Assembly (NCBI GenBank): GCA_964589355.1
Contig: CAZPTG010000001.1
Span: 31 to 64,030 of the forward strand
Reading direction: 5' to 3'
Source: an uncultured Spirochaetaceae bacterium
Lineage (GTDB): Bacteria > Spirochaetota > Spirochaetia > Sphaerochaetales > Sphaerochaetaceae
Length of the DNA: 64,000 nucleotides
Part shown: positions 6,088 to 39,152 of the stretch, in pieces
Layout: every line of letters starts with the position of its first letter
Numbering within the stretch: position 1 is the first letter of the stretch
The notes under the pieces: model-generated
Told to the model about the DNA's origin: nothing
What the model saw: the letters and a program-made list of their open reading frames with translations, nothing else
Databases searched by the model: none
Made by a program: the position numbers and the translations under genes

Positions 6088-6101
6088 GCTTATTAATTTA
6101 G

Positions 6102-6172
6102 TGCCGGGGCAAGGACTCGAACCTCGCTTCTCTAGGGTAAAATCCTAGGCTCTACCGTTGAGCTACCCGGCT
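6102..6172 (-). tRNA. tRNA, probable anticodon UUU (Lys), slightly non-canonical
   Basis: The minus strand reads (A)GCCGGGTAGCTCAACGGTAGAGCCTAGGATTTTACCCTAGAGAAGCGAGGTTCGAGTCCTTGCCCCGGCA. It has D stem GCTC/GAGC, anticodon stem CTAGG/CCTAG with loop AUUUUAC, and T arm CGAGG-TTCGAGT-CCTTG. I could not place positions 7/8 and 26 cleanly. Confidence 0.6.
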
Positions 6173-18504: not shown

Positions 18505-18927
18505 CTACTTATTTTCAGATTTGCTTTCCTCTTTGGGTTTATCCTCTTTGGGAGCTTTTTCCTCGAGAACTACTTCAGAAGCAATAGGTTTTTGTTTGCT
18601 ATTGCTCTCCGGGGGATCTACAAGTATAAAGGATACCCTATCACCAGCTTCAAGATTTGGTACCTTACCATCTTTGTAAGCCATAATTTGGGAATGGTGC
18701 ATAAAGATATCATTACCTTCTTCTTGCTTTTCACCATCCATCTGGATAAAACCAAATCCTTTCTTCTTTTTGTCGTTCCATACTACCGTACCAAAGACCG
18801 TATCATCCTCAGCGTTAGCAGTTTGGGTGTTGTCTGAACCAGAAGCTTCTGTAGCTTCATTTTCCACTGTAGTTGCAGTTTCTTGTTCCTGTACTTCATC
18901 TTGTACTTTCTTTTTGCTTTTAGCCAT
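18505..18927 (-). CDS. cold-shock domain protein with acidic N- and C-terminal extensions
   Basis: FGTVVWNDKKKKGFGFIQMDG...DIFMHHSQI...GDRVSF matches the CspA-type RNP1/RNP2 pattern. Confidence 0.8.
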   Translation of the reverse strand: MAKSKKKVQDEVQEQETATTVENEATEASGSDNTQTANAEDDTVFGTVVWNDKKKKGFGFIQMDGEKQEEGNDIFMHHSQIMAYKDGKVPNLEAGDRVSFILVDPPESNSKQKPIASEVVLEEKAPKEDKPKEESKSENK

Positions 18928-18964: not shown

Positions 18965-19465
18965 TTAAACAGCTTGATCATCAGTGTAGGTTTCCCCATC
19001 ACCTAATTTTTCAAGCCAATCTTCGAGAAATTGAGATACTTTATTTCCAGCATCTATCTGAACTTTGACCATTTTAACTTTTTCTTCAAGGTCAGATAAC
19101 TCCTTTTTCTTTTCAGATACTGCATACCTGTTTTGTTCCAGGGACTTCTCATTGAGATCCCACGCATCTTCTATTGCGGAATCTTTGTCTGTGTAAATCG
19201 ATTCTTTGTTGATATCGAAAGACATTTCAAATATCTTATGGTCTCCTTCTATCTCTCCTTTAGACATAATAGACTCGACGATATCTTTTCGATTTACTAC
19301 AACTTTGTTGCCGTCTAAGACAACAGATACTACTCTTATACCCTTTGGATCATACCAGGTAGTCCTTATCAACTTGTTGTCATTGTCTACAACCTCTTCT
19401 TGTAGAAAATATACTATTTCTCCAAGCGATAAAACACTACTGGGTTTGCTAGCTCCTCTTTTCAT
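18965..19465 (-). CDS. hypothetical protein (166 aa)
   Basis: ORF on the coding strand. Confidence 0.55.
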   Translation of the reverse strand: MKRGASKPSSVLSLGEIVYFLQEEVVDNDNKLIRTTWYDPKGIRVVSVVLDGNKVVVNRKDIVESIMSKGEIEGDHKIFEMSFDINKESIYTDKDSAIEDAWDLNEKSLEQNRYAVSEKKKELSDLEEKVKMVKVQIDAGNKVSQFLEDWLEKLGDGETYTDDQAV

Positions 19466-19776
19466 TTTGCATAATTTTGGTTAGTAATCTTGTTTAAAAA
19501 CTTTAAAAGTTTCTTGTCTTGAATAACGGGCCCTAATCTGATGTTATTATCTTCATCTTTTATGTAGACTATTCTCCATTTAGTCTGCTTATGACCCGCT
19601 GTCTCTTTCCAAGCTGAGATCCCCCTGTCTTTTTGAAAGATCTTTTCTATTGGTATTTTGATCCCTAGTACTTTTTTAGCTTTGTACAGAATATTGCGCT
19701 GTATCAAATGTACTAAGGTACCTTCAGCTTTTATGCTTATTATAGGTATTAGATATTTATACTTTTTTACCTTCAT
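19462..19776 (-). CDS. hypothetical protein (104 aa)
   Basis: ORF on the coding strand, first gene after the terminator at 19790-19830. Confidence 0.55.
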   Translation of the reverse strand: MKVKKYKYLIPIISIKAEGTLVHLIQRNILYKAKKVLGIKIPIEKIFQKDRGISAWKETAGHKQTKWRIVYIKDEDNNIRLGPVIQDKKLLKFLNKITNQNYAK

Positions 19777-19789
19777 TTTTTAATAGTTT

Positions 19790-19830
19790 AAAAGGACTGG
19801 GGAGCTGGGACTTTCTTAAGCCCCAGTCCT
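19790..19830 (-). terminator. intrinsic terminator closing the 1.3-kb ORF-free island
   Basis: AGGACTGGGG-18 nt-CCCCAGTCCT, a 10-bp stem, followed on the minus strand by TTTTAAAC. Confidence 0.6.
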
Positions 19831-21088
19831 ATTTCCTTACTTAATATTAAGCTATGATTCAATGAAGTCATCCACCCAAGCTTTTAAAATGCACTTGGTA
19901 CCTCATGAACCACATCCACTCACAACCTCCTTAGCTTAATACTCTTATAGTCACTATTAGTCAGTCTCTTGCTGTGGTTAGGCAAGAAATACACTGACAT
20001 TTATTTGGGTATATATTATACAACAGCCTAACGGCTCCGTTGTAAACCCTTGTTTACTATTTGAATTTTGTAGAACTGTTAGAGGTCTGTTCTACTCTAG
20101 GGACTTAACTTTGTTCTCCACACTTACGGTTACCTGCTAAGTTTAAAGACCCTCTGTCCTACAGAGTATCGCATCATAAGTAGCTCCAAGCAAATATAAC
20201 TGGAAATGGCTGCATCAGTTATAAAGCGCACTACCATGATACTGGGCGGCATTACCGCCTCATTGATGTATGTATCCTCCACATTACTCGATGGTTGAAA
20301 CTGATAGGGATTGCGACCTATCGCAGGCTATTTATCAAACTTATTCCTAAGCCCCAACTTGACGATTCATGCTTCAGATCTTGGCTAGGGCGTATAACAT
20401 GTAGCTTCTTACCATACAAACGGTGAAGCACACGTATCCATCCCTCCTCCTCTTACCCCAGCCGAAATCACAGACGACAGTTCATATTTCGCTACTGCGG
20501 CTTGAACTACACCACTTTACTGGGGGATAAATTATCTACTCTGTACTCGGTACTCAAGGTCTATACAACGACTCTAAGGAATTTGGACCCCCCGTTACTA
20601 ACTTAATTCAAAGTTAAGTGTTCACTTGGCCTATTTACTAGGTAGCATCATCGTAGTCTTCTGGTGTTTCCAGCCCCACTGTATACAGTATATACAGCCC
20701 CGTATTCAGTTACTTCTTAGTTCAACCTTTTCGTAAAGGGAAGTGCGAGCATGCATAAGCTCTTAAGGGTAATACCCACACACTTAAGAGTACGGATTTG
20801 ACCATGGGTTGCGTTAGACCTATTTACCTTAATGTATCCATCGGGTCTGCCAGTTCCTCAGAGTGCGCTTAAATCAATAATTGGAACCCATCTTCCTAGG
20901 ATACTTCATAAGGAGAGTAGTTTTGTAGATATTGAGTAGCTAATAGGTAGTAGGCATTGTCCTTGGTATTCCCAACATTGCCGAATCCAAAGGCGGTAGG
21001 GTGAAGGTTCTCTCAAGAACTGCTACAAAAATTGAAGCCGAAATAGGCTCGCACCTAAATCGACTCAAACCACAAAAAATATTATGTG
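19831..21088 (-). ncRNA. large ORF-free, GC-enriched segment; candidate structured RNA of unknown class (strand inferred)
   Basis: No ORF of 60 aa or more on either strand across 1.26 kb. One sampled 60-mer is about 43% GC, against roughly one-third in the coding flanks. Many local hairpins, and a terminator on the minus strand at its end. Confidence 0.45.
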
Positions 21089-21613
21089 CTACCTTGGCCA
21101 GGTTTCAGACATTATAGCCAAGGCTTTTATTTTATCGAAGGTGAACCCGGTATAGCTGGGACCTCTTGCCATGATCTGTTTAGCTCTTACATTGTTAGCT
21201 GGTTCTATTTTACCACTATCAAGTAGTAGTAAATGGGGTATAAGTTCACCTTGTTCAGTTACTTCCGTCAGTTCTACATACCCAGTTTCAATATCTTTAT
21301 TGTGTAAGGGCACTAGCTCTGATGGTTTTTCTTGAAATGTTTTATTGGTTAGCTTAATCATTCTTACCATCAAGGATCTACTTCTCCTTGTTAAGCTTTT
21401 TCTTCTAGCATCTATCTCGCTTATGAGTAAACTCATATTGTTGATAGTACTAGAAGCTCTTGTAAACTTGGAGTTTTGACAGGTTGAACGTATTAAATAA
21501 ATGTCGTTAAATAACCGTAACCTTAAGCTCCTGAGCTCGTTGATACGCACGCTTACGAGTATTAACTCTATTGCGTCGTGTGAAGTGTTTCTTTCTTTTT
21601 TACTTTTTGACAT
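21089..21613 (-). CDS. hypothetical protein (174 aa)
   Basis: ORF on the coding strand. Confidence 0.55.
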   Translation of the reverse strand: MSKSKKERNTSHDAIELILVSVRINELRSLRLRLFNDIYLIRSTCQNSKFTRASSTINNMSLLISEIDARRKSLTRRSRSLMVRMIKLTNKTFQEKPSELVPLHNKDIETGYVELTEVTEQGELIPHLLLLDSGKIEPANNVRAKQIMARGPSYTGFTFDKIKALAIMSETWPR

Positions 21614-23257: not shown

Positions 23258-23282
23258 GTTTGGTTAGTTTTAATGGTTAAAG

Positions 23283-23308
23283 AAAAAGGGGGACTATTAA
23301 TGTCCCCC
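23283..23308 (-). terminator. intrinsic terminator closing the intron-containing ORF-free region
   Basis: The minus strand reads GGGGGAC-ATTAATA-GTCCCCC followed by TTTTTCT. Confidence 0.75.
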
Positions 23309-23782
23309 AAGACTCACCGATTAAGCAGCTGCTCTAAGCAATTGCATCATTTCAGATTCGCCATTTAAAAATTACTTACACCTTTCGTGCTAACTGGGTA
23401 CCATAACGTCAAAACCAATTAGGCCCCATATTTTTAACGTTGAAAACAAAGGGCAGGTTACACCCCAGGGGCTACCTGAGTTACCAACCTCCGTGAAATT
23501 ATAATATTTTCTCCTCACCTGCCCTACTGCTATCATTGGCAACGGGCTATTTTACTAGCCTGTATCCTATTTCCGATAATCGGATGTTTTTAGTATTAGC
23601 TTCTACCTTAAGAACATTTCTTAGATACTTTTGTATCTCCTTCTTACGTCTCTTTTTCTCCTTCCGTGGTAGTTTTAATGCTTTCATAATACAGTGTTTA
23701 GATAAGTGGAGCCTTCGGGACAATAGTTAAAACATCTGGAACAGTAACATTTCAAACCTGCGTCCGTATATTCAATAAAAAT
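23309..23782 (-). ncRNA. ORF-free, GC-enriched structured segment between the LAGLIDADG gene and the terminator
   Basis: No credible ORF. Has a long-range 8-bp pairing, GGGCAGGT...ACCTGCCC, and several hairpins. Could be the distal part of the group I intron, or a 3' exon RNA. Confidence 0.35.
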
Positions 23783-24178
23783 ATGGGTTGGGAATATATT
23801 ACAGGTTTCTTTGATGCTGACGGCACGATAACATTTTTACGTTTACATAAGAATTGCGAAAGATCACCTGTTATTTCTTTTAGTAATAACGAATATGACC
23901 TACTTGTGGAAATAGAAAAATTTATTAAACTTGAAACAGGTCATAATGGATTCATTTGTACTAAAAAATCAGGTGATTTTACTAATTATGAGCTGAGGTA
24001 TACTTATTTACCTAAATGTATAAACGTACTATCTTACATAAATTCCAGACATCCCAAGAAGCGTAGACGTATAGATATGATACTTAACGAATTGAAGAGT
24101 ATAACACCTCGTAATGGTAAATATACAAAAGAAACCTTATCAAAACGTCAAGAATTTACATCTCGCTTCTTCTCCTAA
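23783..24178 (+). CDS. LAGLIDADG homing endonuclease (single-motif type)
   Basis: 131 aa. The N-terminal ITGFFDADGTITF is a LAGLIDADG motif. It is the only plus-strand gene in the leftward module, and its stop lies inside the P9 hairpin of the antisense group I core. Confidence 0.8.
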   Translation: MGWEYITGFFDADGTITFLRLHKNCERSPVISFSNNEYDLLVEIEKFIKLETGHNGFICTKKSGDFTNYELRYTYLPKCINVLSYINSRHPKKRRRIDMILNELKSITPRNGKYTKETLSKRQEFTSRFFS

Positions 24179-24395
24179 TTTCTCAGGAGTATCGGACTAT
24201 CTCTTCACTTTTAAGTGCTGGGCGCTCTAGCCTGTATTCAGGTAGTCTCTGCACCTTCCCTCTTAAGGGCTTGGCTCAGGGTTGCCTTATCATTGTGACT
24301 TAGGTTTCCCTGAATTCACCCAGTTTAACTTCGACCTTTTGATCGAACCCGAGTCCGCTAAAGCCCTAGCTAGCAGCGTAAGTAAATCGTTTGTT
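24172..24395 (-). ncRNA. group I intron catalytic core (IC3-like)
   Basis: The minus strand carries P = AATTCAGGGAAAC, Q = AACCCTGAGC (P4 CAGGG/CCCTG), R = GGTGCAGAGACTAC and S = AAGAGATAGTCC (P7 GACTA/TAGTC). It also has P3 CTGGGTG/CGCCCAG, P8 CACTT-AA-AAGTG, P2 TTCGATC-AAAA-GGTCGAA and P9 CTCCT-GAGAAATT-AGGAG, all in canonical order. Confidence 0.8.
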
Positions 24396-24402
24396 AGTTA
24401 AG

Positions 24403-24846
24403 TTAGGTTATAAGGTTACTATATCCCTTAGTCTTTAACATTTCCCATTCTCTATAACATAGTCCTCTTTTGTGTGGATCCTTTATTTTACTTACCGGCA
24501 TTAAGTATCCCTCATGGACTGGTAGTACTATTTTACGACCGTAAAAGAATAAAGAATCTAAGCTATCTTCTTTATATGCTTCAGATAGCTCTAATACACT
24601 CTTAAGAAAATGTGTCTTGTTATAGAGTATGACTGCTCTTGGTACTTCTATTAAATGGTGTTCTTCACCAAATAAGCTACCAAAAGCATTGCTAACATTA
24701 GAGAAATGTAGCATCTTTTCTTTGTAGCTACACGCTACCTTACTTATTGAAGGTACATATTCTCCAATAAAGTCGGGCATGTCAATAATTACTAAACTGC
24801 CCTTACTTATTTTGTCTTTGCTTTGCTTTGAGTTAGATTTCCACAT
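24403..24846 (-). CDS. hypothetical protein (147 aa); possible 5' exon of the intron-bearing gene
   Basis: ORF on the coding strand whose stop lies a few nt upstream of the intron core. Confidence 0.5.
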   Translation of the reverse strand: MWKSNSKQSKDKISKGSLVIIDMPDFIGEYVPSISKVACSYKEKMLHFSNVSNAFGSLFGEEHHLIEVPRAVILYNKTHFLKSVLELSEAYKEDSLDSLFFYGRKIVLPVHEGYLMPVSKIKDPHKRGLCYREWEMLKTKGYSNLIT

Positions 24847-25278: not shown

Positions 25279-25313
25279 AATATTTAATTTTTGTGGTTTG
25301 TAAATAAAAATAG

Positions 25314-25506
25314 TAGCCATACTGGGACTCGAACCCAGATCTCCCTATAATTTATTAGGGGCTCTTCCGCTACTCGGACTCTGCGTGAGGTGGCCTAGAA
25401 TGGATTGGATTTTAAGTCCAAATAAGTTCCATTCTCCTCTGCATATCCTTGGGGGTTACAGCCGATTCCTAGGAACTTGAGTGTAACACTTTTGAGCTAT
25501 ATGGCT
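25314..25506 (-). tRNA. 193-nt tRNA-like gene with a ~115-nt insertion in the D-loop region
   Basis: The 5' part is AGCCATA-TA-GCTC-A. The 3' part is GTAGCGGAA-GAGC-CCCTA-ATAAATTA-TAGGG-AGAT-CTGGG-TTCGAGT-CCCAG-TATGGCT-A. The acceptor is 7/7 and the T arm is canonical, with an 8-nt anticodon-type loop. The insert contains AGAATGGA...TTGGA-CTTAAAA-TCCAA...TCCATTCT. Confidence 0.45.
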
Positions 25507-25511
25507 AACAG

Positions 25512-25631
25512 CAGTCCGTGGAGGAGTCGAACCTCCGTTTCCGTGGGGCAAACCATGGTTGATACTCTAACATAGCTAGTGCATGTATAAAGTATTAACA
25601 GCTCGGCGTCCTACCACTAGACGAACGGACC
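25512..25631 (-). tRNA. 120-nt tRNA-like gene (Asn-type anticodon loop CUGUUAA) with a ~46-nt insertion after the loop
   Basis: The 5' part is GGTCCGT-TC-GTCT-AGTGGTA-GGAC-G-CCGAG-CTGTTAA. After the insert it continues (C)CACGG-AAAC-GGAGG-TTCGACT-CCTCC-ACGGACT-G. The anticodon stem pairs only 4/5. Confidence 0.45.
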
Positions 25632-25751
25632 ATAAGTTAGGGAGACCTGAAGTACGACTGCTGTATGGGCTGGTTACCACCGTGTCGTCGCCGATAGCCC
25701 TGATTGGGCTCCAAGATCTCTCTATATTTTTAACAATTTCATTTTTGTGGT

Positions 25752-25880
25752 TTATCTACAGAAAATCGCTAGTGCTATTAGTGCTATCCACATAATTGCT
25801 CCTAGTATGCATCCGTAGATATCTTGTCCATCATTAGGATCAAATTCTCTATCTTCGTCTCTTGATTGTTCCCAATCCAT
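25752..25880 (-). CDS. small membrane protein (42 aa)
   Basis: Own translation gives MDWEQSRDEDREFDPNDGQDIYGCILGAIMWIALIALAIFCR. Preceded by the AAACCACAAAA box at 8 nt. Below the ORF-track size cut-off. Confidence 0.45.
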   Translation of the reverse strand: MDWEQSRDEDREFDPNDGQDIYGCILGAIMWIALIALAIFCR

Positions 25881-25898
25881 ATTTTTAATTTTGTGGTT

Positions 25899-26519
25899 TT
25901 ATTTAATAGCTATCAGTACTCTGGCTGATTGCCTATCTTCCTCTTTGTTAGATGTATTAAACTTGTGTTCATCTATTAACTCTTCTATCTCTGTTGAGCC
26001 CCCTAGATGTACAAATACTTGTCCCTTGCGCATCTTCCTGAATAACTCATCAAATGTTTCTCTTGGTTCACCTGTGATATTAAAAGCATAAATAATGTCA
26101 GGATCTAACCTGAGTATTAAGTCTACTCTTTCCTGTACATATCCATTGTATATTTCTAGATGAGGCCTCATTATTGTAGCTATCTTACAAAGATTCCAAT
26201 CAGCTTCTATTCCATAAGTTTTCTTAAATATTATGCTGAATAAGTCTACAAGTAATCCTGTTCCACATCCTAAGTCAATTATGCTTTTACTTAATAAATC
26301 ACTTAAATTCCAACCAACTGTTAGTTGTAACTCTTTGTATATGTCAAATAGATCAAACCACCTTGTAGACATATACCCTGTAACATACCTGGCTCTACTT
26401 ACAAGCGCCATAGGTCCGTCACCTATCGGCTGTCTTAAGCTCATTTCGTACTGACAGTTTTCCTTATATATGAGAAGCTGTCTAAGTATGTCTATTTCTT
26501 TGTTAAAGTTTTTTTTCAT
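25899..26519 (-). CDS. class I SAM-dependent methyltransferase
   Basis: 206 aa. Motif I is IIDLGCGTGLLVDL. Confidence 0.75.
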   Translation of the reverse strand: MKKNFNKEIDILRQLLIYKENCQYEMSLRQPIGDGPMALVSRARYVTGYMSTRWFDLFDIYKELQLTVGWNLSDLLSKSIIDLGCGTGLLVDLFSIIFKKTYGIEADWNLCKIATIMRPHLEIYNGYVQERVDLILRLDPDIIYAFNITGEPRETFDELFRKMRKGQVFVHLGGSTEIEELIDEHKFNTSNKEEDRQSARVLIAIK

Positions 26520-26552
26520 CTTACTTAATTTTTGTGGTTTATTGTATAAGAT

Positions 26553-26610
26553 AAACAGGTAGATCCCACCCTCAATGAGCGCGTATCTGTCAGAATAGAT
26601 CTACCTGTTT
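26553..26610. repeat. 13-bp inverted repeat (aaacaggtagatc / gatctacctgttt) with 32-nt spacer
   Basis: Read directly at 26553-26565 and 26598-26610. Confidence 0.9.
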
Positions 26611-26648
26611 AGTTTTAATAATTTAACTGTTTAGTTTTAATAATTTAA
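26605..26648. repeat. perfect 22-bp tandem direct repeat x2
   Basis: ctgtttagttttaataatttaa occurs twice in tandem, followed by an A/T-only stretch. Confidence 0.9.
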
Positions 26649-26724
26649 TCTCTAAAATAATAATAAATAAATTTTAGTTGTTGTTAATTAAGGTGGCTTA
26701 AGTACTCTCATAATTACGGTATTT

Positions 26725-26741
26725 AAACTATTTGTTATAAT
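26725..26741 (+). promoter_or_regulatory. 17-nt box AAACTATTTGTTATAAT (TGnTATAAT-like), identical to the box before the late operon
   Basis: Exact 17/17 identity with 31156-31172. Contains an extended -10-like TGTTATAAT. Confidence 0.45.
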
Positions 26742-26952
26742 CTGGTGGACAAAAGTCCTCAAAAAAATACCTGTTATTGGAAAACAGTAGGGAAAGAGCT
26801 GTATCAGCTGTACTTCAGCATTCATACCCTTTCTTTGGGGTGACAACTATTTATGGTGTTGTCTGTATAGTTTTATTTAAAGACCTACTGTTTGTGCAGC
26901 AACCATCTGGCTTAATCCTACATGGGTTACTACAGTTCTGTTGTTTGTGGTT

Positions 26953-27135
26953 CTACTGCGTATGTTGCTCTCGTTTTAGCCTGCTAATCCGTTGTTGCAG
27001 TTCAACTATACGCTCTTCATCCCTTGGTACTCGCTTATCAATTACTTTCTTTCCACGAGTTCGCATATTTTTGGACTTAGGCCTATTCAGCTGACCTGAA
27101 AGCCTAGTTTTAGCTCTATCTAACCTGGTTTTCAT
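26953..27135 (-). CDS. basic hypothetical protein (60 aa)
   Basis: ORF on the coding strand. Arg/Lys-rich. Confidence 0.45.
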   Translation of the reverse strand: MKTRLDRAKTRLSGQLNRPKSKNMRTRGKKVIDKRVPRDEERIVELQQRISRLKREQHTQ

Positions 27136-27445
27136 ATTTAGCCTCCCTTTTTTTAGTTTTTACATACTTTCTGTACTTTTTGTCAATAGAACACCAGAAT
27201 AGTTCCCTTTCGATTGATGCTGCCCATGGAAATGCTTGTGATATAGCATTTAGATCCCCGTTTATATTTAATGGGCTGTTAGTACTCGTAAATGGGTCAC
27301 TCTTTGATGCTTTTAACTTAGATGTTTTAGAAGCAAAGAAGTATGTTAGATCAATAAACCTATTTAATAAACTCTCTTTCTTTAAAAACGAGACTAGTAG
27401 CTTATTATCCAAGGTCTTGCCGGATATTTGCCACCTACTTATCAT
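27116..27445 (-). CDS. hypothetical protein (109 aa from Met38)
   Basis: The start was placed at 27445 because it forms an ATGA overlap with the stop of the upstream ORF (27442). Confidence 0.5.
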   Translation of the reverse strand: MISRWQISGKTLDNKLLVSFLKKESLLNRFIDLTYFFASKTSKLKASKSDPFTSTNSPLNINGDLNAISQAFPWAASIERELFWCSIDKKYRKYVKTKKREAKYENQVR

Positions 27446-27846
27446 AATCTCCACCACTTCCTGGTTTGCAATGGGATCATATAACCATCTTCCTTGATAG
27501 CAAATTGGTATTCCCAACCTTTTAGCATCACAAAGAAATCTGTGATCTTGTGCCAATTAGTTGACTTAGGCCATTTTGTACCTGTTTGCTTAACCTTGTA
27601 ATGAGTAGCTTTAAGCAGCCTATAATAATTAGGTTGGCAATAGCCTATTACACCAATAGGAAGACGTTTACCTACTTCTACATAGGCTGTCTTATAATCC
27701 TTTGTAGGTATTAACCCAGTAATTACTACAGCATGTCCTGCTAATTCTTCTGTAGGGTTGTCCTTGAGTACGTCAGGTAGTAATAATACTCGATCCCCAA
27801 TCTGTACTTTGTTGGAATTTAACCATACTAATGCTTTTGATGTCAT
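27442..27846 (-). CDS. hypothetical protein (134 aa)
   Basis: ORF on the coding strand, with the box 9 nt upstream. Confidence 0.6.
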   Translation of the reverse strand: MTSKALVWLNSNKVQIGDRVLLLPDVLKDNPTEELAGHAVVITGLIPTKDYKTAYVEVGKRLPIGVIGYCQPNYYRLLKATHYKVKQTGTKWPKSTNWHKITDFFVMLKGWEYQFAIKEDGYMIPLQTRKWWRL

Positions 27847-27870
27847 ACATCTATATTTTGTGGTTAATAA

Positions 27871-28113
27871 TCAGCTCCCCATACCTAACTGGGGAGCTTC
27901 ACTTTTTGCAATCTCTTCATCAATTTCCACTACTTTCTTGTCAATGTAGCTGATGAGGGAGAATCTGTATTCTTCTGCAAACAATGGGTTGTAGTTTTTG
28001 TTGTTTAACAACCTATTATTCCTAAATACTATTCTACCTGTACTGATTGCTTCCCTATCCCTGAGAAGCTTGGCTTTACGATTATTAAGTCTTTCTAATC
28101 CTTTTTCAATCAC
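27871..28113 (-). CDS. hypothetical protein (80 aa), GTG start
   Basis: ORF on the coding strand with no ATG available. Two boxes lie upstream. Confidence 0.45.
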   Translation of the reverse strand: MIEKGLERLNNRKAKLLRDREAISTGRIVFRNNRLLNNKNYNPLFAEEYRFSLISYIDKKVVEIDEEIAKSEAPQLGMGS

Positions 28114-28168
28114 TTTATTTTGTGGTTTAATTTAACTTATTTATAACTTTGTAGCTTTGTGGTTTAGT

Positions 28169-28690
28169 TTAACAGATGTGTGGTTTTCCACTACTTTGCC
28201 CTACTATGGCAACTCGCCCCTTTTTCTTAGCAAGTCTGTAGAATTCTTTCTCTTCTTCAGTAGCAGGTCTATACTCTGCTTCAAACCAAGCAGGCTTGTT
28301 TAGGTGTCTTAAATTTCTAATTGGATCACCAGTAAAGGCTTCACATAATATTAAATCACTGTACCATTTTGCTTCCAATATTTTAGTAACTGTACCTTCA
28401 ATATTACCACTGTGGTAATGTGTAATTACAACTATTTCCCCCCTTTTAGGTTTATAGTTCCAGGTTAACATTTTATTGTTGACAGACCACAAGGTGGGAT
28501 AAGCATGTGGATTTACATTGTCTATCATAGCAATACCTTGGTTTGCAACTTCTTCATAGAAGTCTTTTGTCACTGGTGTACCGAATAGGTAATCCATCTC
28601 ACCTTCACTGTTAAAACGTGCTTTAGTTCTAAAATTAGAACCAAACTCTTTCATGAGTTCTTCCTTAGTTTTAAATCTGTAAATCTTCAT
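28169..28690 (-). CDS. hypothetical protein (173 aa)
   Basis: ORF on the coding strand, with a variant box upstream. Confidence 0.6.
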   Translation of the reverse strand: MKIYRFKTKEELMKEFGSNFRTKARFNSEGEMDYLFGTPVTKDFYEEVANQGIAMIDNVNPHAYPTLWSVNNKMLTWNYKPKRGEIVVITHYHSGNIEGTVTKILEAKWYSDLILCEAFTGDPIRNLRHLNKPAWFEAEYRPATEEEKEFYRLAKKKGRVAIVGQSSGKPHIC

Positions 28691-28718
28691 AATCTTATAG
28701 TTTTGTAGTTAATAGTAT

Positions 28719-28925
28719 TTAATGATTTAAAAGATAGTTAATACACTTGGGAATCTTCTTATCTTCATAGAATGGGTCAAATTTTGTAGCTGTAATTTCC
28801 ATTGCTTTGTGATAGAAGTATGTACTTAACATTAGGTAGAATGCTTGACCCTTCCTTAAATTAGGATTTTGTTCTAATAAATCCTCACGTTTCTTTATTA
28901 CTAATGTTATTTGCTCTCTAGTCAT
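28719..28925 (-). CDS. hypothetical protein (68 aa)
   Basis: ORF on the coding strand. Confidence 0.5.
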   Translation of the reverse strand: MTREQITLVIKKREDLLEQNPNLRKGQAFYLMLSTYFYHKAMEITATKFDPFYEDKKIPKCINYLLNH

Positions 28926-28938
28926 ACTATTGATTTGA

Positions 28939-29199
28939 TTATATAATAAATTCTTTAATTAATAAGTATATTATATATAATAGTAAACATACTGTTACAA
29001 ATGCTACTATAATGATTACCCCTAAGTACATAGTTTCAAGGACTGAACTGTCGCATGCTAACAAATCTATTTCATCTACATGTGTAAAGTATAGGATTAG
29101 TTTCCCTATACCCCACCCACATACAGCTGTGATTGCTAATTCAGCTGCTATTATTATAGGTACTAACAATACCCTAAATACTATTTTTATTATTTTCAT
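28939..29199 (-). CDS. small membrane protein (86 aa, 3 predicted TM segments)
   Basis: The hydrophobic segments are VLLVPIIIAAELAITAVCGW and LGVIIIVAFVTVCLLLYIIYLLI. The box lies 2 nt upstream. Confidence 0.55.
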   Translation of the reverse strand: MKIIKIVFRVLLVPIIIAAELAITAVCGWGIGKLILYFTHVDEIDLLACDSSVLETMYLGVIIIVAFVTVCLLLYIIYLLIKEFII

Positions 29200-29210
29200 A
29201 GTTTTGTGGT

Positions 29211-29594
29211 TTAAAGTTCAGTGTCAACTAATCTTTCAAATACCATTTCCCTGTTCTCTTCATCCAGCCTATCAAATTCATGTAAAGGTGTGTGGAGTCT
29301 TTTTACACTAAACTCTACCGAATTTAAGACATTAATAACAGTAACTTGTTTTATATCACTAGGATGCTCTATAAGTTGTTCCCTTGCTTGTGTATCAAAC
29401 CAGGTTAGTTCGTTGTAGTTAATATATCCTATCCTAAACTTTATCCCATCTTTAATGACAAATACGCAAAGGTACCTACTGGGATAGACTGAGCTTGTTA
29501 ATTCAGGGTCATTATGGCTGTGAGATTCAATACAATAATTAATATCATCAATGTTAATTATTGTACCTCTTCCAATTAATTCAATTTTATTCAT
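29211..29594 (-). CDS. hypothetical protein (127 aa)
   Basis: ORF on the coding strand, with the box 9 nt upstream. Confidence 0.6.
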   Translation of the reverse strand: MNKIELIGRGTIINIDDINYCIESHSHNDPELTSSVYPSRYLCVFVIKDGIKFRIGYINYNELTWFDTQAREQLIEHPSDIKQVTVINVLNSVEFSVKRLHTPLHEFDRLDEENREMVFERLVDTEL

Positions 29595-30038
29595 AGTTGT
29601 ATATTTTTGTGGTTTATAGCTATTAGTATTATATAGGTTGGGTTATTGATTATGTGAAATTAGGGCTGATTGAGGCGTGAGTTTAGACGACCTATAACAC
29701 TCTCCCTCATTTGCCCATAAATGCCCTTTTTAAGCGATTTAAAGCCTTCATAGGGTAGTTTAGGTACTACAGGTCTATTTAGACTATAAACAGCTTATAT
29801 GGCTTTATTTGGGGATATGCCAACATACTTCAGACAGTCCAAATTTGGACTAAACTTTCAGATCTGATAGTACTCAATTTAGTTATCAGTACTTACTATT
29901 TATCCTTATTGCCTTTTATAATTACTATTATAAGCATGGCAAATAATGTCATAATTATAACAGCTGTTTCTAATTCCATGATTAATTAATTTAGTTATTG
30001 GTACTTATTTTGTAGGAATACCATGATTTAGCTTAGTG

Positions 30039-31780: not shown

Positions 31781-31967
31781 TGCTGTTAGGAATATGCCTA
31801 ATGATCAGGAATTAGGCGAACATGTGAGGTCTTTGTATAAATATGATGAAAGTGTACATAACCTTAACCAAGAACAATCTGGGCAAACCAGGTTAAATTT
31901 TGAGGGTGAAAATGAAACCTTTTCAACCCAATATAAGTATAAGTACCGTAATTGGTTAGGCAGGTAG
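31716..31967 (+). CDS. hypothetical protein (83 aa)
   Basis: ORF on the rightward strand. Overlaps the GroES-like 3' end, so the start is uncertain. Confidence 0.4.
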   Translation: MIMTSTGEYIRRAIARNKQVSSAVRNMPNDQELGEHVRSLYKYDESVHNLNQEQSGQTRLNFEGENETFSTQYKYKYRNWLGR

Positions 31968-32252
31968 TCTAACTAATAGGCACCTACCGAGAGGTAGATC
32001 GCCCCCGAGGGCCGAGAGGTAGTTAGGGGGTCAGAAGTTGGGTTAGTAAGTATATTGTCCCCGATAGTGCCAAAAACACCCTAAGTATAAGCTAAGCACC
32101 CTATGACCCAACAGGTCTATATAGAATGGAAAAAATAGGGGTGGGTGTAGCCAACAAGAGGTGACGAACTGGTTTAGCGAAAACTTAGGGCAAATTTTAC
32201 GATTATAGGGGATAGGTATATCTAAAAATTAATAAAATAGCTTATTTAGCTT

Positions 32253-32495
32253 ATGAGTTTAAAAGATGAATTTAGGGATATTCTCCATAATAGGACTGAT
32301 GTAGCTAGGTTTAACTTAGGTACAGAAAATAAGTCAGGAGTTGATGTTATGTTTAGGCGTAACATAAAAGCAGCTGAAATAGTTGATGAAGAGACTGGTA
32401 CTGAAGATGATGAAGTATTTTATAAGTTTAAAGGCAGTATATCAAGCCCTGAAGAATTAATTTATAGGTTAGATAATAAAAGGCCCCCAGAGTAA
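32253..32495 (+). CDS. hypothetical protein (80 aa)
   Basis: ORF on the rightward strand. Confidence 0.5.
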   Translation: MSLKDEFRDILHNRTDVARFNLGTENKSGVDVMFRRNIKAAEIVDEETGTEDDEVFYKFKGSISSPEELIYRLDNKRPPE

Positions 32496-32564
32496 TGCCT
32501 ATGGGCAATCATATAAAACTGGGCGTAAATCAAAGAGTAAAACTAAAAAGGGGAGATAGTAAAT

Positions 32565-32864
32565 ATGTTGATAGAAAAGATTTATAAGCGTGAAGATGAT
32601 AAAGGTAATTTTGTAGTTGATGTTGTACTCCCTGGCGTTGACAAATCAGATATTAAAGTTATTACCGAGTTAGGTTAGTTGCATGTTAAGGCTAGTCATG
32701 AAAGTGAAGCTATGGCACGTAAGGTATTATTTAATGAATGGTATGCTTTACCTAGGAATCTAGACCTTGACAATGTAAGAGCTAAATATGAAAATGGTAT
32801 CCTAAGTATAAGTATATCAAAGATTGAATTGGAAGACCTAGGTAAGCAAGTTAAAGTTGAGTAG
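32565..32864 (+). CDS. small heat-shock protein (Hsp20/alpha-crystallin domain) interrupted by an in-frame TAG at 32676-32678 (readthrough or pseudogene)
   Basis: ATG at 32565 gives MLIEKIYKREDDKGNFVVDVVLPGVDKSDIKVITELG, then TAG. The same frame continues LHVKASHE...AKYENGILSISISK. Together these form a typical ACD, with the PGV..dI.v motif and Y.NGiL.I.i.K. Confidence 0.65.
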
Positions 32865-32918
32865 TTACTAACTTAATCAGTTTGCTTATGTATGGACTAT
32901 GGTTATTAACTCCAGTCT

Positions 32919-32948
32919 AACCCCAGTAAGGCTGGGGTTTTTTTATTA
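32919..32948 (+). terminator. intrinsic terminator after the Hsp20 gene
   Basis: AACCCCAG-TAAGG-CTGGGGTT followed by TTTTTTATT. Confidence 0.8.
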
Positions 32949-33003
32949 TCAGTATTATATAACCTTTTAACTAAATATACGTATCAGTACTAAATTATTA
33001 ATT

Positions 33004-33147
33004 ATGGATGAACAACAGAAAGCAGTTGAACAGTTTAGGCTAGAATGCCTTAGGGAGGCTTTATTCTTTCTTAAAGGCGATAAAGAAGTAACTGACACAG
33101 AGATAGTCAGGACAGCAAAGAAATTTGCTAAATTTGTAACAGAATAA
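33004..33147 (+). CDS. hypothetical protein (47 aa)
   Basis: Own translation gives MDEQQKAVEQFRLECLREALFFLKGDKEVTDTEIVRTAKKFAKFVTE. It fills an otherwise empty gap and is below the track cut-off. Confidence 0.4.
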   Translation: MDEQQKAVEQFRLECLREALFFLKGDKEVTDTEIVRTAKKFAKFVTE

Positions 33148-33161
33148 ATAAAAAGGTAATT

Positions 33162-35445: not shown

Positions 35446-36012
35446 ATGGAATTATTTGATATAGAGAATGATAGGTTAGTACTCAATCCCACAAATCTTT
35501 ATATACCACCTTTTAAAAAGATATGGGATAGGGACAAATCTAAAGGTAAGAGTAAAGCATACAATGAGATTGCTTATGTTACATTTCTTTGTAATATGTC
35601 TAGGAAGAATCCATACAATGCTTACTCTGATTTTGATAAAGATAAAAAGATAAGGGAAGATCTATTTGGTAGTCCCGATTGGGAGCCTAATAACTTAGTG
35701 CAAGAGGCTATAGAGAAGTATAATGAGATGCAGAAAACTACTAACTCTAGACTGCTGCAATCTGCTAAAAACGGTGCGCAGAAGCTAGCTAATTATTTTG
35801 ATAGGGTAGATTTTGAAGCTATAGACAATTATGGTAAACCTAAGTATTCAGCTAGGGACTATGCATTTAATCTTAAAGAAGTAGGCAATATAGTTAAGTC
35901 TTTGACACAGTTAGAGAAGCAAGTAGAGAAAGAACAGATGGAATTAAGTGAAGCTAGGGGTGGAAGTGAAATTGGTATATACGAGATACCTGATAAACAA
36001 TCATCAGAATAA
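35446..36012 (+). CDS. possible terminase small subunit (188 aa)
   Basis: Position only: it lies directly upstream of TerL and is stop/start-coupled to it. Confidence 0.35.
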   Translation: MELFDIENDRLVLNPTNLYIPPFKKIWDRDKSKGKSKAYNEIAYVTFLCNMSRKNPYNAYSDFDKDKKIREDLFGSPDWEPNNLVQEAIEKYNEMQKTTNSRLLQSAKNGAQKLANYFDRVDFEAIDNYGKPKYSARDYAFNLKEVGNIVKSLTQLEKQVEKEQMELSEARGGSEIGIYEIPDKQSSE

Positions 36013-39000
36013 TGGAAGATACATACGAAGTAAGGGTTAGAAAATTTAAAAATACTGATAAATTTAGGCCAGCTGCTAAGTATTTTGAAGAAAACAGCAT
36101 GTATACTGCAGCTCCCCCAGGTACTACAGAATATAAGCGTTATTGGGACAGAGAAATGAAACGTAGTACCGATGGCTTTACTGCTGAAGATGGTGATAGT
36201 ATTACAGGCTATCACTATTTTTATTTAAATTATTGCCCCATAATGAAAGTAGTTGAGAAAGAAGTTCCTGATGGTAGTGGTGGTACTAAGGTTATACCTA
36301 CTAGGGACAGGGGATTTCCAAATTTCTGGGACTATGATAAGGAGTATTTTGACGCAGTAGAAGAAGCAGAAAATAGGGGTAGTCATATGGCTGTGCTTAA
36401 AAAGCGTAGGTCAGGTTATTCGTATAAAGTTGCTGCAATGTTGAATAGAAATTTCTTCCTTATACCCGAATCGATATCTTATGCTATAGCCTCAGAAAAG
36501 GAATTTTTAACGAAAGATGGTGTACTGTCCAAGGCTTGGGATATGATGAGTTGGATAGATGATAATACAGCTTGGACTAAGAAGAGACAAGCAATAGACA
36601 CCAATATGCATAGAAGGGCTTCTTTCTATACTACTAAGGGAGGCAGTAAAATAGAGAAGGGATATAAATCTGAAATTATAGGTGTTACTCTAAAGAATGA
36701 TCCTCAAAAAGCTAGAGGTAAAGCAGCTAAACTAATTGTCTGGGAAGAATCAGGTAAATTTCCAAATTTGCTTCAATCGTGGCAGATAGCTCAACCTTCG
36801 GTAGAACAGGATGGTGTGGCTTTTGGTACAATGATTTCTTTTGGTACGGGAGGTTGTTTAACAGCTGGGAACAAAGTATTTAATAATAAAGGTGAATTAA
36901 TAAATATAGAAGATTTAGTTAAAAATGAAGGTATAATTGGTTTTGATGAAATGTCTGGTAATTATAGTAAAGAAGATATAGCTTATCAACAACCATATAC
37001 TGAAAAAGAAACTATTAAATTAACTACTGATTCTGGTAGAACAATAGAGTGCAGTACGGATCATCCTATTTATTCTCCAATATTTAAAGATAAAGGATGG
37101 AATAAATATCACAAAAGGCAGAATAGAAGAATAATAGGACATGACTGGAAAGAAGCTGGTAATATAGCTGAAGGTGATTTAATATCAGTTATAGACAAAT
37201 TACCAATATTTGGCGATAAAGAGGTAGAAGACGCTAGACTATTAGGCATGCTAGTAGGGGATGGTACTTATGGTAATAGTACTCCTAAATTTGCTAATTG
37301 TGACAAAGAGCTTTGGGATTATATAGATGATAATTATTCCAATGCTGTATATTTAGAGAGGGAAAATAAAGATAAGAGAATATATAAAGAAGCTGGTATA
37401 TTAAACTTTAATGATACTCTTAGATATCATGGTATATTTGGACAAACTAAATCTGATAAAAGATTGCCAAAAGATGTACATAAATGGAATAAAAAATCTA
37501 TTTCAGAGTTTGTTGCTGGATTGTATGATGCTGATGGGTATATAAGTTTTAGAGTAAATAATAAAAGAAAAGGTAAATATTTATCTGAAATAAGTTTGAG
37601 CCAAAATAATTTAGAGATATTAAAAGAGTTACAACTAATATTACAAAAATTTGGCATACATGGTAAATTAAGAACCAGGCAACCTAGAGATAATAATCCA
37701 AAAGATGTCAATGCTTGGCATGAATTTAATATCAGTGATTGTAGAAGTTTAACTTTGTTTGTTGAAAATTTTAATTTACTTATAAAAAATAAGCAAGAAA
37801 AATTAAATAATATTTGGGATTATAATAAAGACAAAAAACCCCAAAGAAAATATAATGGACTAAGGCATGAGAAAGTTATATCTATTAAACATACTGGTAT
37901 TAATCCTGTTTATAATTTAACAGCTTCAAATACTAATACTTATTTAGGTAATGGTGTAATTACGCATAATACAGAAGAGGCAGACTATTCTAGCTTAAAA
38001 GAGTTGTTTTATAAACCTAGGGCTTATAATGTTCTACCTATAAGGAATGTATGGGATGATGGTGCTTATGAAACAGCATGTGGCTTTTTTGTACCTAACT
38101 ATATGAATATGCAAGGCTTTATGAATGAGGATGGTAATTCCTCAATAGATGAAGCTATAGAAGAATCTAATAGGCAACGTAAGGAGGTAGAAGAGCATTC
38201 TGGTGATAAGAATTCTGTAGATAGGTATATTGCGGAACACCCAAATACGCCTAGAGAAGCTACCTTACAGTTGACTGGTAATATATTCCCTAAGAAAGAA
38301 CTACAGGCACAGAAAGCTAGGATAATGGGGGATAAGAAGCTGAAAAACTATAAACAGGTGGGTAGTCTTGAGTATGATGGGGCTGGTAGACTAAGGTGGA
38401 ACCAGCTATCTGGAGCTAAAGATATAGAGAAGTTTCCTTTAGATAAAAATGATAGCAAAGAAGGGGCTATAGTTATATGGGAGCATCCTGTTGAAGATCC
38501 TCCGTATGGTCTATATATAGCTGGTATTGACCCTTATGACCATGATGATTCTGGTACTTCTTCTTTAGGGAGCACTATTATATATAAAAGATTTCAGTCA
38601 TTTGAACAGTACTATGATATAATAGTAGCTGAATATACAGGTAGACCAGATACGGCTAATGAGTATTATGAAAATGTCTACAGGCTACTTAAATACTATA
38701 ATGCAAGGGCTTTATACGAGAATGAGCGTAAAGGTATGTACGCTTATTTTGCTAATAAGGGTGTTGATTATATGTTAGCTAATCAGCCTGATATTATACA
38801 TGACATTGTGCAAGTATCTAAGGTACAACGTAAGAAGGGTATTCATATGACTAAAGGTATAAAAGATTGGGCTGAACGAGAAATACGAGATTGGCTTAAT
38901 GAAGAATATTCACCAGGCCATAAGAATTTGGAGAAAATATTCTCATTACCATTGTTAGATGAGTTAATATCTTATAACGATAAGGGCAACTTTGACCGAG

Positions 39001-39152
39001 TAATTTCATTAATGATGGTAATGTTGTATAAAAAAGAATTACATAATGTACATGTTAAGGATAAGAAAAGGAGTGAGAAAACTATTGATAAGTTCTTTCA
39101 AACTAGGTTTTTCACTGAAGATAGAAAATATAATTTTAACCGGTTAAGATAA
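36012..39152 (+). CDS. terL: terminase large subunit, intein-containing precursor (1046 aa; 674-aa extein)
   Basis: P-loop-like KKRRSGYSYK, Walker B-like LIVWEESGKF and nuclease-type IAGIDPYDHDD. Followed by the portal-size gene. Interrupted by a Hint/LAGLIDADG block. Confidence 0.85.
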   Translation: MEDTYEVRVRKFKNTDKFRPAAKYFEENSMYTAAPPGTTEYKRYWDREMKRSTDGFTAEDGDSITGYHYFYLNYCPIMKVVEKEVPDGSGGTKVIPTRDRGFPNFWDYDKEYFDAVEEAENRGSHMAVLKKRRSGYSYKVAAMLNRNFFLIPESISYAIASEKEFLTKDGVLSKAWDMMSWIDDNTAWTKKRQAIDTNMHRRASFYTTKGGSKIEKGYKSEIIGVTLKNDPQKARGKAAKLIVWEESGKFPNLLQSWQIAQPSVEQDGVAFGTMISFGTGGCLTAGNKVFNNKGELINIEDLVKNEGIIGFDEMSGNYSKEDIAYQQPYTEKETIKLTTDSGRTIECSTDHPIYSPIFKDKGWNKYHKRQNRRIIGHDWKEAGNIAEGDLISVIDKLPIFGDKEVEDARLLGMLVGDGTYGNSTPKFANCDKELWDYIDDNYSNAVYLERENKDKRIYKEAGILNFNDTLRYHGIFGQTKSDKRLPKDVHKWNKKSISEFVAGLYDADGYISFRVNNKRKGKYLSEISLSQNNLEILKELQLILQKFGIHGKLRTRQPRDNNPKDVNAWHEFNISDCRSLTLFVENFNLLIKNKQEKLNNIWDYNKDKKPQRKYNGLRHEKVISIKHTGINPVYNLTASNTNTYLGNGVITHNTEEADYSSLKELFYKPRAYNVLPIRNVWDDGAYETACGFFVPNYMNMQGFMNEDGNSSIDEAIEESNRQRKEVEEHSGDKNSVDRYIAEHPNTPREATLQLTGNIFPKKELQAQKARIMGDKKLKNYKQVGSLEYDGAGRLRWNQLSGAKDIEKFPLDKNDSKEGAIVIWEHPVEDPPYGLYIAGIDPYDHDDSGTSSLGSTIIYKRFQSFEQYYDIIVAEYTGRPDTANEYYENVYRLLKYYNARALYENERKGMYAYFANKGVDYMLANQPDIIHDIVQVSKVQRKKGIHMTKGIKDWAEREIRDWLNEEYSPGHKNLEKIFSLPLLDELISYNDKGNFDRVISLMMVMLYKKELHNVHVKDKKRSEKTIDKFFQTRFFTEDRKYNFNRLR
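36855..37970 (+). mobile_element. 372-aa class 1 intein with LAGLIDADG homing endonuclease domain, inserted in TerL
   Basis: The N-extein FGTGG is followed by CLTAGNKVF. The intein ends GNGVITHN and is followed by a +1 Thr (TEEADY). Two dodecapeptide motifs are present, LLGMLVGDGTY and FVAGLYDADGYI. Confidence 0.9.

Follow-up and report, generated by a model that had tools for sequence, protein, structure and literature searches.

A candidate family of large structured non-coding RNAs in a small clade of uncultured crAss-like phages

The DNA analysed here is a stretch of 64,000 nucleotides (nt) from contig CAZPTG010000001.1 (assembly GCA_964589355.1), hereafter the window, and the subject of this study is a gene-free island at positions 19777-21088, lying between two genes of the minus strand. 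We consider it very likely that positions 19790-21080, read on the minus strand, are the gene for a structured non-coding RNA (ncRNA) of about 1.25 kb, and that its family is present in a few closely related, uncultured crAss-like phages. We are likewise confident that the island is a real, conserved and structured ncRNA locus of that strand, belonging to an undescribed family. A first-pass annotation, made from the letters alone without database searches, had proposed that the minus strand encodes a large structured RNA whose class was unknown, and this proposal is now supported by synteny, by substitutions lacking codon periodicity, by an excess of compensatory changes and by a strand-biased fold. 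Judged by its capsid gene, the window is a crAss-like (Crassvirales) phage: the product of the open reading frame (ORF) 42806-44266 matches Pfam Crass_capsid with an E-value (E) of 9.4e-190 and shares 61-63% identity with capsid proteins encoded by Crassvirales. Window genes up to about 31 kb are encoded on the minus strand, and the publicly available contig has a length of 97,237 bp.

It is uncommon to find a large structured RNA whose function is unknown, and new classes of them have tended to reveal new biology (GOLLD, ROOL, OLE). Crassvirales are among the most abundant phages, and the sole earlier hint of such RNAs in them came from RNA sequencing of phage phi14:2; the island adds a sequence-defined family in about ten genomes. 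Because its boundaries are mapped, its 5' module is conserved and the conservation of its base pairs has statistical support, the family is open to expansion, modelling and direct testing. Moreover, ORF-free islands in crAss-like genomes are not to be dismissed as junk or mis-annotation.

The longest ORF overlapping the island, both strands considered, has 50 amino acids (aa), which agrees with the initial observation that no ORF of 60 aa or more is present on either strand. All six frames carry 16-37 stop codons each, with TAA, TAG and TGA present in every one, and for this reason reassignment of a single codon rescues no gene, as had already been concluded for recoding. The G+C content (GC) is 0.40-0.45 in 300-nt windows of the island vs 0.32-0.36 in the flanks, and 0.416 overall vs 0.345 for the whole window, confirming the compositional shift noticed at first pass. 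Comparison of all six frames with Pfam and PHROG returned no family at E ≤ 1, and neither a reverse transcriptase nor any other Pfam or PHROG domain.

Relatives were found by an exhaustive search of representatives with the 174-aa protein encoded upstream of the island (21089-21613, minus strand; no family assignment), which gave ten homologues whose contigs, designated here by L numbers, were then compared and proved to share the gene order. Homologues of this marker gene precede the island in all relatives, and its stop codon in the window is at the same position as in homologues such as that of L004. The ORF-free stretch following it measures 1024 nt in L010, 900 nt in L007, 839 nt in L018 and L019, 754 nt in L014 and L015 and 467 nt in L020; it is at least 816 nt in L009 and at least 813 nt in L011, in both of which the contig ends. 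L026, a close relative of L007, has an ORF-free island at the same place. The islands of all relatives are GC-enriched with respect to their own contigs. On the 3' side follows a 104-aa gene with its own ATG (19462-19776, minus strand; no family assignment), and the order of genes encoding about 104 aa, about 130-166 aa and a cold-shock-domain protein is kept in L014, L015 and L020; in the window the cold-shock domain (CSD) is found in the ORF 18505-18927. Homologues in which the segment is a normal protein-coding gene, named at first pass as evidence that would speak for a decayed gene, were looked for, and the opposite was found.

Selection and structure were assessed by comparison within two pairs of islands. 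The window and L009 share 54% protein identity in the marker gene, and the best DNA match of the entire L009 contig (blastn) lies in the island, at 20879-20662 (75%), with further collinear blocks at 21003-20969 (91%), 20598-20554 and 20355-20297. Identity of this pair is 0.627 in the island and 0.53-0.595 in three flanking genes. The closest pair, L007 and L026, is 83.7% identical over 7.2 kb and 0.818 in the island, where mismatches are distributed over the three phases as 57/50/57; each flanking gene shows a third-position excess, e.g. 15/7/39. Furthermore, divergence of the island in this pair is below that of the third codon positions of neighbouring genes. By these sequence comparisons, the island is under purifying selection without codon periodicity.

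For the analysis of compensatory changes, one sequence was folded alone and the substitutions of the other were placed on its pairs. The L007/L026 island contains 22-23 double-compensatory changes vs about five expected, a value reached in none of 1000-2000 permutations, and six coding controls of 900 nt taken from the same alignment gave 2-7 such changes (p > 0.08). Between the window and L009, 23-24 compensatory changes were counted on the L009 fold vs 13 expected (p about 0.002). The consensus folds are more stable by 25-42 kcal/mol on the gene (minus) strand, with energies of -202.5 (sense) vs -160.4 (antisense) for L007/L026 and -103.9 vs -78.4 for the window and L009, which argues for RNA rather than duplex DNA. 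It is because of these energies, and of the orientation of the terminator described below, that the RNA is assigned to the minus strand. Generic hallmarks of ncRNA are thereby present: no conserved ORF, substitutions that are not codon-periodic, and a compensatory excess over both the null expectation and the coding controls. Covariation, which had been listed at the outset among the checks to be made, was found as the compensatory excess in L007/L026 and in the covarying 5' module.

This module, consisting of a short box and a tRNA-like hairpin, is the most conserved part of the locus, with 92-100% identity between L007 and L026. In the window the hairpin with its tail occupies 21030-21066 (minus strand); its acceptor-like stem is formed by 21065-21060 and 21041-21036, is followed by a T-rich tail, and encloses a degenerate T-arm, AGG-TGCGAG-CCT, with a 6-nt loop. 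Relatives have an acceptor-like stem of 5-8 bp and a stem of 3-5 bp capped by a 7-nt T-loop (UGCRAAU or UUCAAAU), exemplified by GGGGG-TGCGAAT-CCCCC, GGG-TGCAAAT-CCC and AGG-TTCAAAT-CCT, and a small variable hairpin is often placed between the acceptor-like and the T-arm-like stems. The closing stem covaries among the copies, as seen in AGTCGA/TCGGCT, GGCCAGCA/TGCTGGCC, GGTCAAT/ATTGACC, CCGGCC/GGCCGG and AGCCAAT/ATTGGCT. The motif GUGCG at 21050-21054, which had been considered as a group II intron 5' end, is indeed present but has no such role, being located in the loop of the T-arm-like hairpin.

A covariance model of box and hairpin, R1, matches the window at 21030-21080 (minus strand) with 52 bits (E 9e-09). 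It finds exactly eight full copies of the module, with E from 1e-8 to 1e-12, and additionally a copy in L004 that is 3'-truncated by the contig end (29 bits, E 0.0006). In the alignment of eight sequences 86% of the cells are paired, and both sides have changed in 8 of the 11 pairs. The covariation score of this alignment, which is fitted to the structure, is 0.506 vs 0.298 for shuffled alignments, was reached by none of 500 shuffles and compares with 0.08-0.28 in slid controls. Covariation of the 5' module is on these sequence data formally supported.

The remainder of the island forms a GC-enriched, ORF-free body with many hairpins (19831-21029, minus strand), for which collinear matches exist in L009, L010 and L011. 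Its hairpin CTGTATA-TACTG-TATACAG (20678-20698, minus strand), with a conserved UACUG loop, has nine pairs, of which three are compensatory and none is broken among the window, L009 and L011; the homologous hairpin in L007/L026 carries two compensatory changes. At 20661-20673 (minus strand) the hairpin CTGG-AAACA-CCAG corresponds to TTGG-AAATA-CCAA in L009 and CCAAG-AAAAA-CTTGG in L011, both sides having changed. A hairpin of T-loop type, GATAGG-TCGCAAT-CCTATC (20303-20322, minus strand), appears in L009 as CATGGG...CCCATG, with two compensatory pairs, and in L011 as GTAGG-TGTAAGC-CCTAC. In the 3' domain, CAACGGAGCC-GTTA-GGCTGTTG (20021-20042, minus strand) contains the motif CGGAGC-GTWA-GCTG. 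The islands of L010, L007 and L026 have this motif in their 3' portions too, and the stems that flank it covary.

The 3' end of the island is formed by a terminator-like hairpin, GGACTGGGG...CCCCAGTCC followed by TTTT (19790-19830, minus strand), which ends about 20 nt before the next ATG. A closing hairpin with a T run had been described here from the letters and this holds: the arms 19790-19802 and 19821-19833 are 92% complementary and the minus-strand T run adjoins them. A simple terminator scan missed it because the loop is 18 nt long. Each of the islands whose 3' end is covered (L010, L014, L018, L020 and L007) closes with a stable hairpin shortly before the next ATG. In L010 and L014 this hairpin is immediately succeeded by a T run, and in L018, L020 and L007 by a tail that is interrupted or only T-rich. 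These hairpins and T-rich tails are oriented with the surrounding genes.

A number of points weigh against reading the island as the gene of one long RNA. Transcription, transcript ends and abundance are all predictions. The strongest covariation test concerns the L007/L026 homologue and not the sequence of the window, and the link between the two is transitive, being made by synteny, the R1 module, the GTTA hairpin of the 3' domain and chains of weak nhmmer matches that run through L010, L011 and L018 (collinear matches of the window and L009 to L011 and L010, and of L007/L026 to L010 and L018). For the window and L009, the compensatory excess reaches significance under some settings only, and disappears (p 0.85-0.92) when the unrestricted fold of the window is used. 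Distant relatives cannot be aligned over most of the island, whose length ranges from 0.47 to 1.3 kb; a large part of it may be dispensable or specific to a lineage. A MAFFT alignment of all islands was unreliable beyond a few blocks; one more conserved block, about 50 nt long, is common to L014, L018 and L020. The L020 island has neither the box nor the 5' hairpin. A T-rich tail follows the 5' hairpin in four of seven relatives and could stop transcription before the body, L007 and L014 having no T run there. Finally, the thermodynamic stability is ordinary: z-scores of the fold energy of the full-length island are -2.1 (plus strand) and -1.25 (minus strand) vs -3.4 to -6.1 in neighbouring coding windows, and local z-scores are likewise no better than those of neighbouring coding sequence. 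Because of that, the case for structure rests on comparative data. The same applies to the frequent local helices claimed at first pass; the examples GGCGG/CCGCC (20245-20259), GATAGG/CCTATC (20303-20322) and CTGG/CCAG (20661-20673) are all present, but their frequency does not exceed chance thermodynamically.

Under our interpretation as a gene for a long structured RNA, the locus would be transcribed leftward together with the surrounding genes, either by read-through from the 174-aa gene or from a start at the box. The tRNA-like hairpin would define and protect the 5' end, possibly as a processing signal of RNase P type, and the 3' hairpin would terminate the transcript and protect its 3' end. 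Since both ends would be guarded in this way, we propose that a stable RNA accumulates during infection, similarly to the long non-coding RNAs (lncRNAs) of phi14:2. As to function, we suggest only tentatively, and consider it somewhat doubtful, that the RNA acts in trans as a scaffold or decoy binding proteins in host takeover, with the box-complementary leader as a possible link to early genes.

The box itself, AAACCACAAAA, has 11 copies in the window at no more than one mismatch vs 2.45 expected. Ten of these are on the minus strand at 25289-29615, before small genes of the early region, where they sit 0-11 nt (mostly 8-11) 5' of the next ATG and sometimes directly after the hairpin of the preceding gene; the box probably acts as an early promoter or as an element of the 5' leader. 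The eleventh, at 21067-21079 (match 21067-21077), is the sole plus-strand copy, located at the upstream edge of the island as had been reported initially. Read on the minus strand it is TTTTTTGTGGTTT, the exact complement of AAACCACAAAA. Its proposed role as a boundary stands, refined to that of a part of the conserved 5' module. In eight relatives (L004, L007, L009, L010, L011, L014, L018 and L026) ATATTTTTGYGGTT directly follows the stop codon, and L026 (505-2707) reproduces the layout of the window, with forward boxes before the upstream genes and one inverted box at the start of the island. A GCGG variant of the inverted box occurs in L014 and L018; the corresponding forward form is AACCGCAAAA, and no forward boxes were found in 3.4 kb upstream of the L018 island or in about 1.4 kb upstream of that of L014. 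The core of the inverted box is TAnnTTTG-like and presumably resembles the -7 promoter element of Bacteroidota. The inverted box could be a promoter part for the island RNA, a site for a DNA-binding factor shared with the early genes, or an RNA seed directed against early leaders, and the complementarity between the leader and the early-gene box suggests a regulatory link.

One elaborate version of this link, which we regard as improbable, would make the locus a new giant phage RNA with two coupled activities. Its leader UUUUUGUGGUUUG would pair with AAACCACAAAA in about ten short early messenger RNA (mRNA) leaders and, as a global switch made of RNA, shut off their translation. Enzymes of tRNA processing, attracted by the tRNA-like hairpin, would mature and stabilise a large ornate body; this would serve as a scaffold or decoy and might form multimers, as ROOL and GOLLD do.

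The alternative that survives best retains the pairing and gives up the body. According to it, only the short 5' module is functional, as a small RNA (sRNA) made of the UUUUUGUGGUUUG seed, the tRNA-like hairpin and a U tail, either derived from a 3' untranslated region (UTR) or transcribed independently, which would pair with AAACCACAAAA in about ten early mRNA leaders and shut translation, the other 1.2 kb being a less important spacer. The exact complementarity of the inverted box to the early-gene box just before the ATG is what this explanation would predict, and so is its occurrence as a single copy just after the stop codon of the 174-aa family in eight relatives, with the distant L026 keeping forward boxes and one inverted box. 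Seed, hairpin and T run are moreover the classical architecture of a bacterial sRNA, the T-rich tail is shared by four of seven relatives, and the module exceeds the rest of the locus in conservation between L007 and L026. However, the body is conserved as well and holds most of the compensatory changes, the hairpin has no T run after it in L007 and L014, and whether the RNA would include the box at all depends on the transcription start; a DNA motif bound by one protein or polymerase explains both orientations of the box equally well. We judge this sRNA explanation unlikely.

Returning to the long RNA, its 3' end lies so close to the next gene that it might instead belong to it. The island would then act in cis on the operon that follows it (104 aa, 166 aa and cold-shock-domain protein), as a long 5' UTR whose terminal hairpin and T run are a regulated attenuator of riboswitch or T-box type, or a processive-antitermination RNA. 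It fits this arrangement that the hairpin stops about 20 nt short of the ATG, both in the window and in every relative covered to that point, with no box or recognisable promoter between, and that the order of the downstream genes is conserved. However, attenuator leaders known so far are much shorter than 0.5-1.3 kb, an alternative pairing that could serve as antiterminator was not identified, no cis-regulatory family of Rfam matches, and a modular body of variable length, composed of several hairpins independent of one another, has more the look of a separate RNA. We judge a leader quite unlikely.

Least probable is that the island is non-functional or acts only as DNA (a remnant of a pseudogene or mobile element, a GC-richer fragment gained by horizontal transfer, or a site of replication or packaging). 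In favour of this, its GC differs from that of the genome, several metagenome contigs end in or just after it, which makes population variability possible, and in crAss-like genomes there are regions that contain nothing but short ORFs, mixed in polarity (Yutin et al. 2021, PMC7886860). Against it, the island has no protein family match in six frames, no substitution periodicity and no ORF conserved between relatives, a divergence below that of the third codon positions of its neighbours, compensatory changes at about four times the expectation, a fold asymmetry in favour of the sense strand that points to RNA, and, within the window, neither iterons nor tandem repeats nor a paralogous copy.

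Several more specific identities were also considered and rejected. A repeat scan found no iterons, tandem repeats or terminal inverted repeats, and no paralogous copy exists within the window. A decayed pseudogene is rejected, since six-frame comparison with Pfam and PHROG (E ≤ 1) left no residual protein similarity and all nine relatives are ORF-free at the equivalent position. A small conserved ORF or micropeptide is rejected as well, no small ORF being kept intact in L007/L026 or in the window and L009.

The comparison with Rfam that had been recommended at first pass, in particular for GOLLD, ROOL, group I and group II introns, gave no match in the island. A cmscan of the whole window at gathering thresholds found nothing there, and a scan of 19600-21300 at E ≤ 10 with lax filters returned only three matches at chance level, at the 3' hairpin and the flank; the islands of relatives matched nothing at E ≤ 1 (L007, L004) or E ≤ 0.1 (others). 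A group I intron, which the first-pass annotation could not fit either, is rejected: the same scan detects one at 24172-24466 (minus strand) with 97 bits, which serves as a positive control, and is silent in the island, and in place of exons joining in frame the 174-aa gene has its own stop codon and the next gene its own ATG. With no match to the group II or D1-D4 models at E ≤ 10, the same conclusion is reached for a group II intron, in line with the failure to fit one by eye. A tRNA or transfer-messenger RNA (tmRNA) gene is rejected too, because ARAGORN and the Rfam tRNA and tmRNA models are silent in the island and only the local acceptor/T-arm hairpin is present.

GOLLD and ROOL had been put forward as the closest precedent, with possible membership. 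Membership did not hold, neither covariance model matching the island even at E ≤ 10 or the relatives at E ≤ 0.1. Like the island RNA, GOLLD and ROOL are large (at least 0.5 kb), ORF-free, many-hairpin RNAs of unknown function, and they are often borne by phages or prophages and often near tRNA genes (for cryo-electron microscopy, see PMC12286853); the RNA of the window differs in coming from Crassvirales of Bacteroidota-type hosts, in having a 5' tRNA-like module and in its more variable length.

By analogy of position and kind only, the nearest precedent is an abundant early lncRNA of phi14:2, a crAss-like Cellulophaga phage. In that phage the early intergenic regions g004-g005 and g005-g006 were called lncRNAs, transcribed above most genes and persisting through infection, with a function unknown to the authors (Drobysheva et al., bioRxiv 10.1101/2020.03.07.982082). 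Both phages belong to Crassvirales and have a long ORF-free stretch among small genes of the early or replication side, which in phi14:2 is 685 nt long (NC_021806 2905-3589). In both, this stretch is oriented as the flanking genes, GC-enriched (0.35 vs 0.28 in phi14:2) and at most about 2 kb away from a phage tmRNA gene. However, no homology of sequence or motif was detected: blastn of the islands against L008 (2902-3600) gave chance matches only, R1 was silent in L008, and g004 is unrelated to the 174-aa family, and a homology link is rejected on these three negatives. It should also be mentioned that the phi14:2 RNA has been recorded by its expression, and that the evidence for that of the window is structural. 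The second phi14:2 lncRNA, g005-g006 (L008 = NC_021806, 4031-4502), is a tmRNA according to Rfam, with 46 bits (E 3e-15), just under the gathering score of 47.

The 5' hairpin has parallels of another sort. tRNA-like modules for processing or stability include the acceptor/T-arm minihelix substrates of RNase P, the tRNA-like domain of tmRNA and the mascRNA of MALAT1. The hairpin resembles them in joining an acceptor-like stem to a stem capped by a T-loop, but differs in having no anticodon arm, D arm, CCA or discriminator pattern and, in the window, in its degenerate 6-nt loop; unlike a tRNA, it is not called by ARAGORN in the window, nor as tRNA or tmRNA by Rfam in the window or the relatives.

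Further searches for members of the family covered several collections. A protein-pattern scan of IMG/VR returned one relative, L007 (alignment A2), and scans of IMG/VR with single flanking proteins or with alignment A1 returned none. The pattern scan of JGI metagenomes (alignment A5) gave no relatives, and the window's own JGI contigs were likewise not returned there. No similar DNA was found by blastn of the island against 50,697 phage records, nor any homologue by tblastn of the 174-aa family against the same records. Additional pattern matches in GTDB and metagenomes beyond the known clade were rejected as tRNA genes or chance. Five metagenome contigs encoding the same proteins are 100% identical to the window and therefore offer no variation to analyse. 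Many independent metagenome contigs break at the island, L001 and L005 at window position 20535 and L004, L009, L011 and L013 inside or just after it, which could reflect low coverage or variability at the population level.

Some 2 kb upstream of the island, at 23263-23492 (minus strand), there is a second conserved noncoding region. Its counterpart in relatives matches the permuted tmRNA of Rfam, with 51.9 bits in L018 (1478-1768; gathering score 47) and, below the gathering score, 30.7 bits in L009 (995-1447) and 34.3 bits in L004 (1283-1608). The stretch of the window is 69-76% identical in DNA to those of relatives, and Rfam is silent there at E ≤ 0.1; from this sequence similarity it is probably a two-piece phage tmRNA.

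Other unusual elements of the window were recorded in parallel. Opposite the group I intron mentioned above lies an ORF (23783-24178, plus strand) with an endonuclease-like PHROG match (E 1.5e-05). Rfam tRNA matches at 25512-25631 (120 nt, 44.6 bits) and 25314-25506 (193 nt, 30.4 bits), both on the minus strand, represent tRNA genes that carry large insertions, which may be introns; neither is called by ARAGORN, whose single report is a tRNA-Lys at 6101-6171. At 31781-33161, where the leftward block of genes switches to the rightward one, about 1.4 kb has no listed ORF of at least 90 aa. Finally, the ORF of 1046 aa at 36012-39152 (plus strand) harbours an intein whose endonuclease domain is of the LAGLIDADG type (Pfam Intein_splicing and LAGLIDADG_3).

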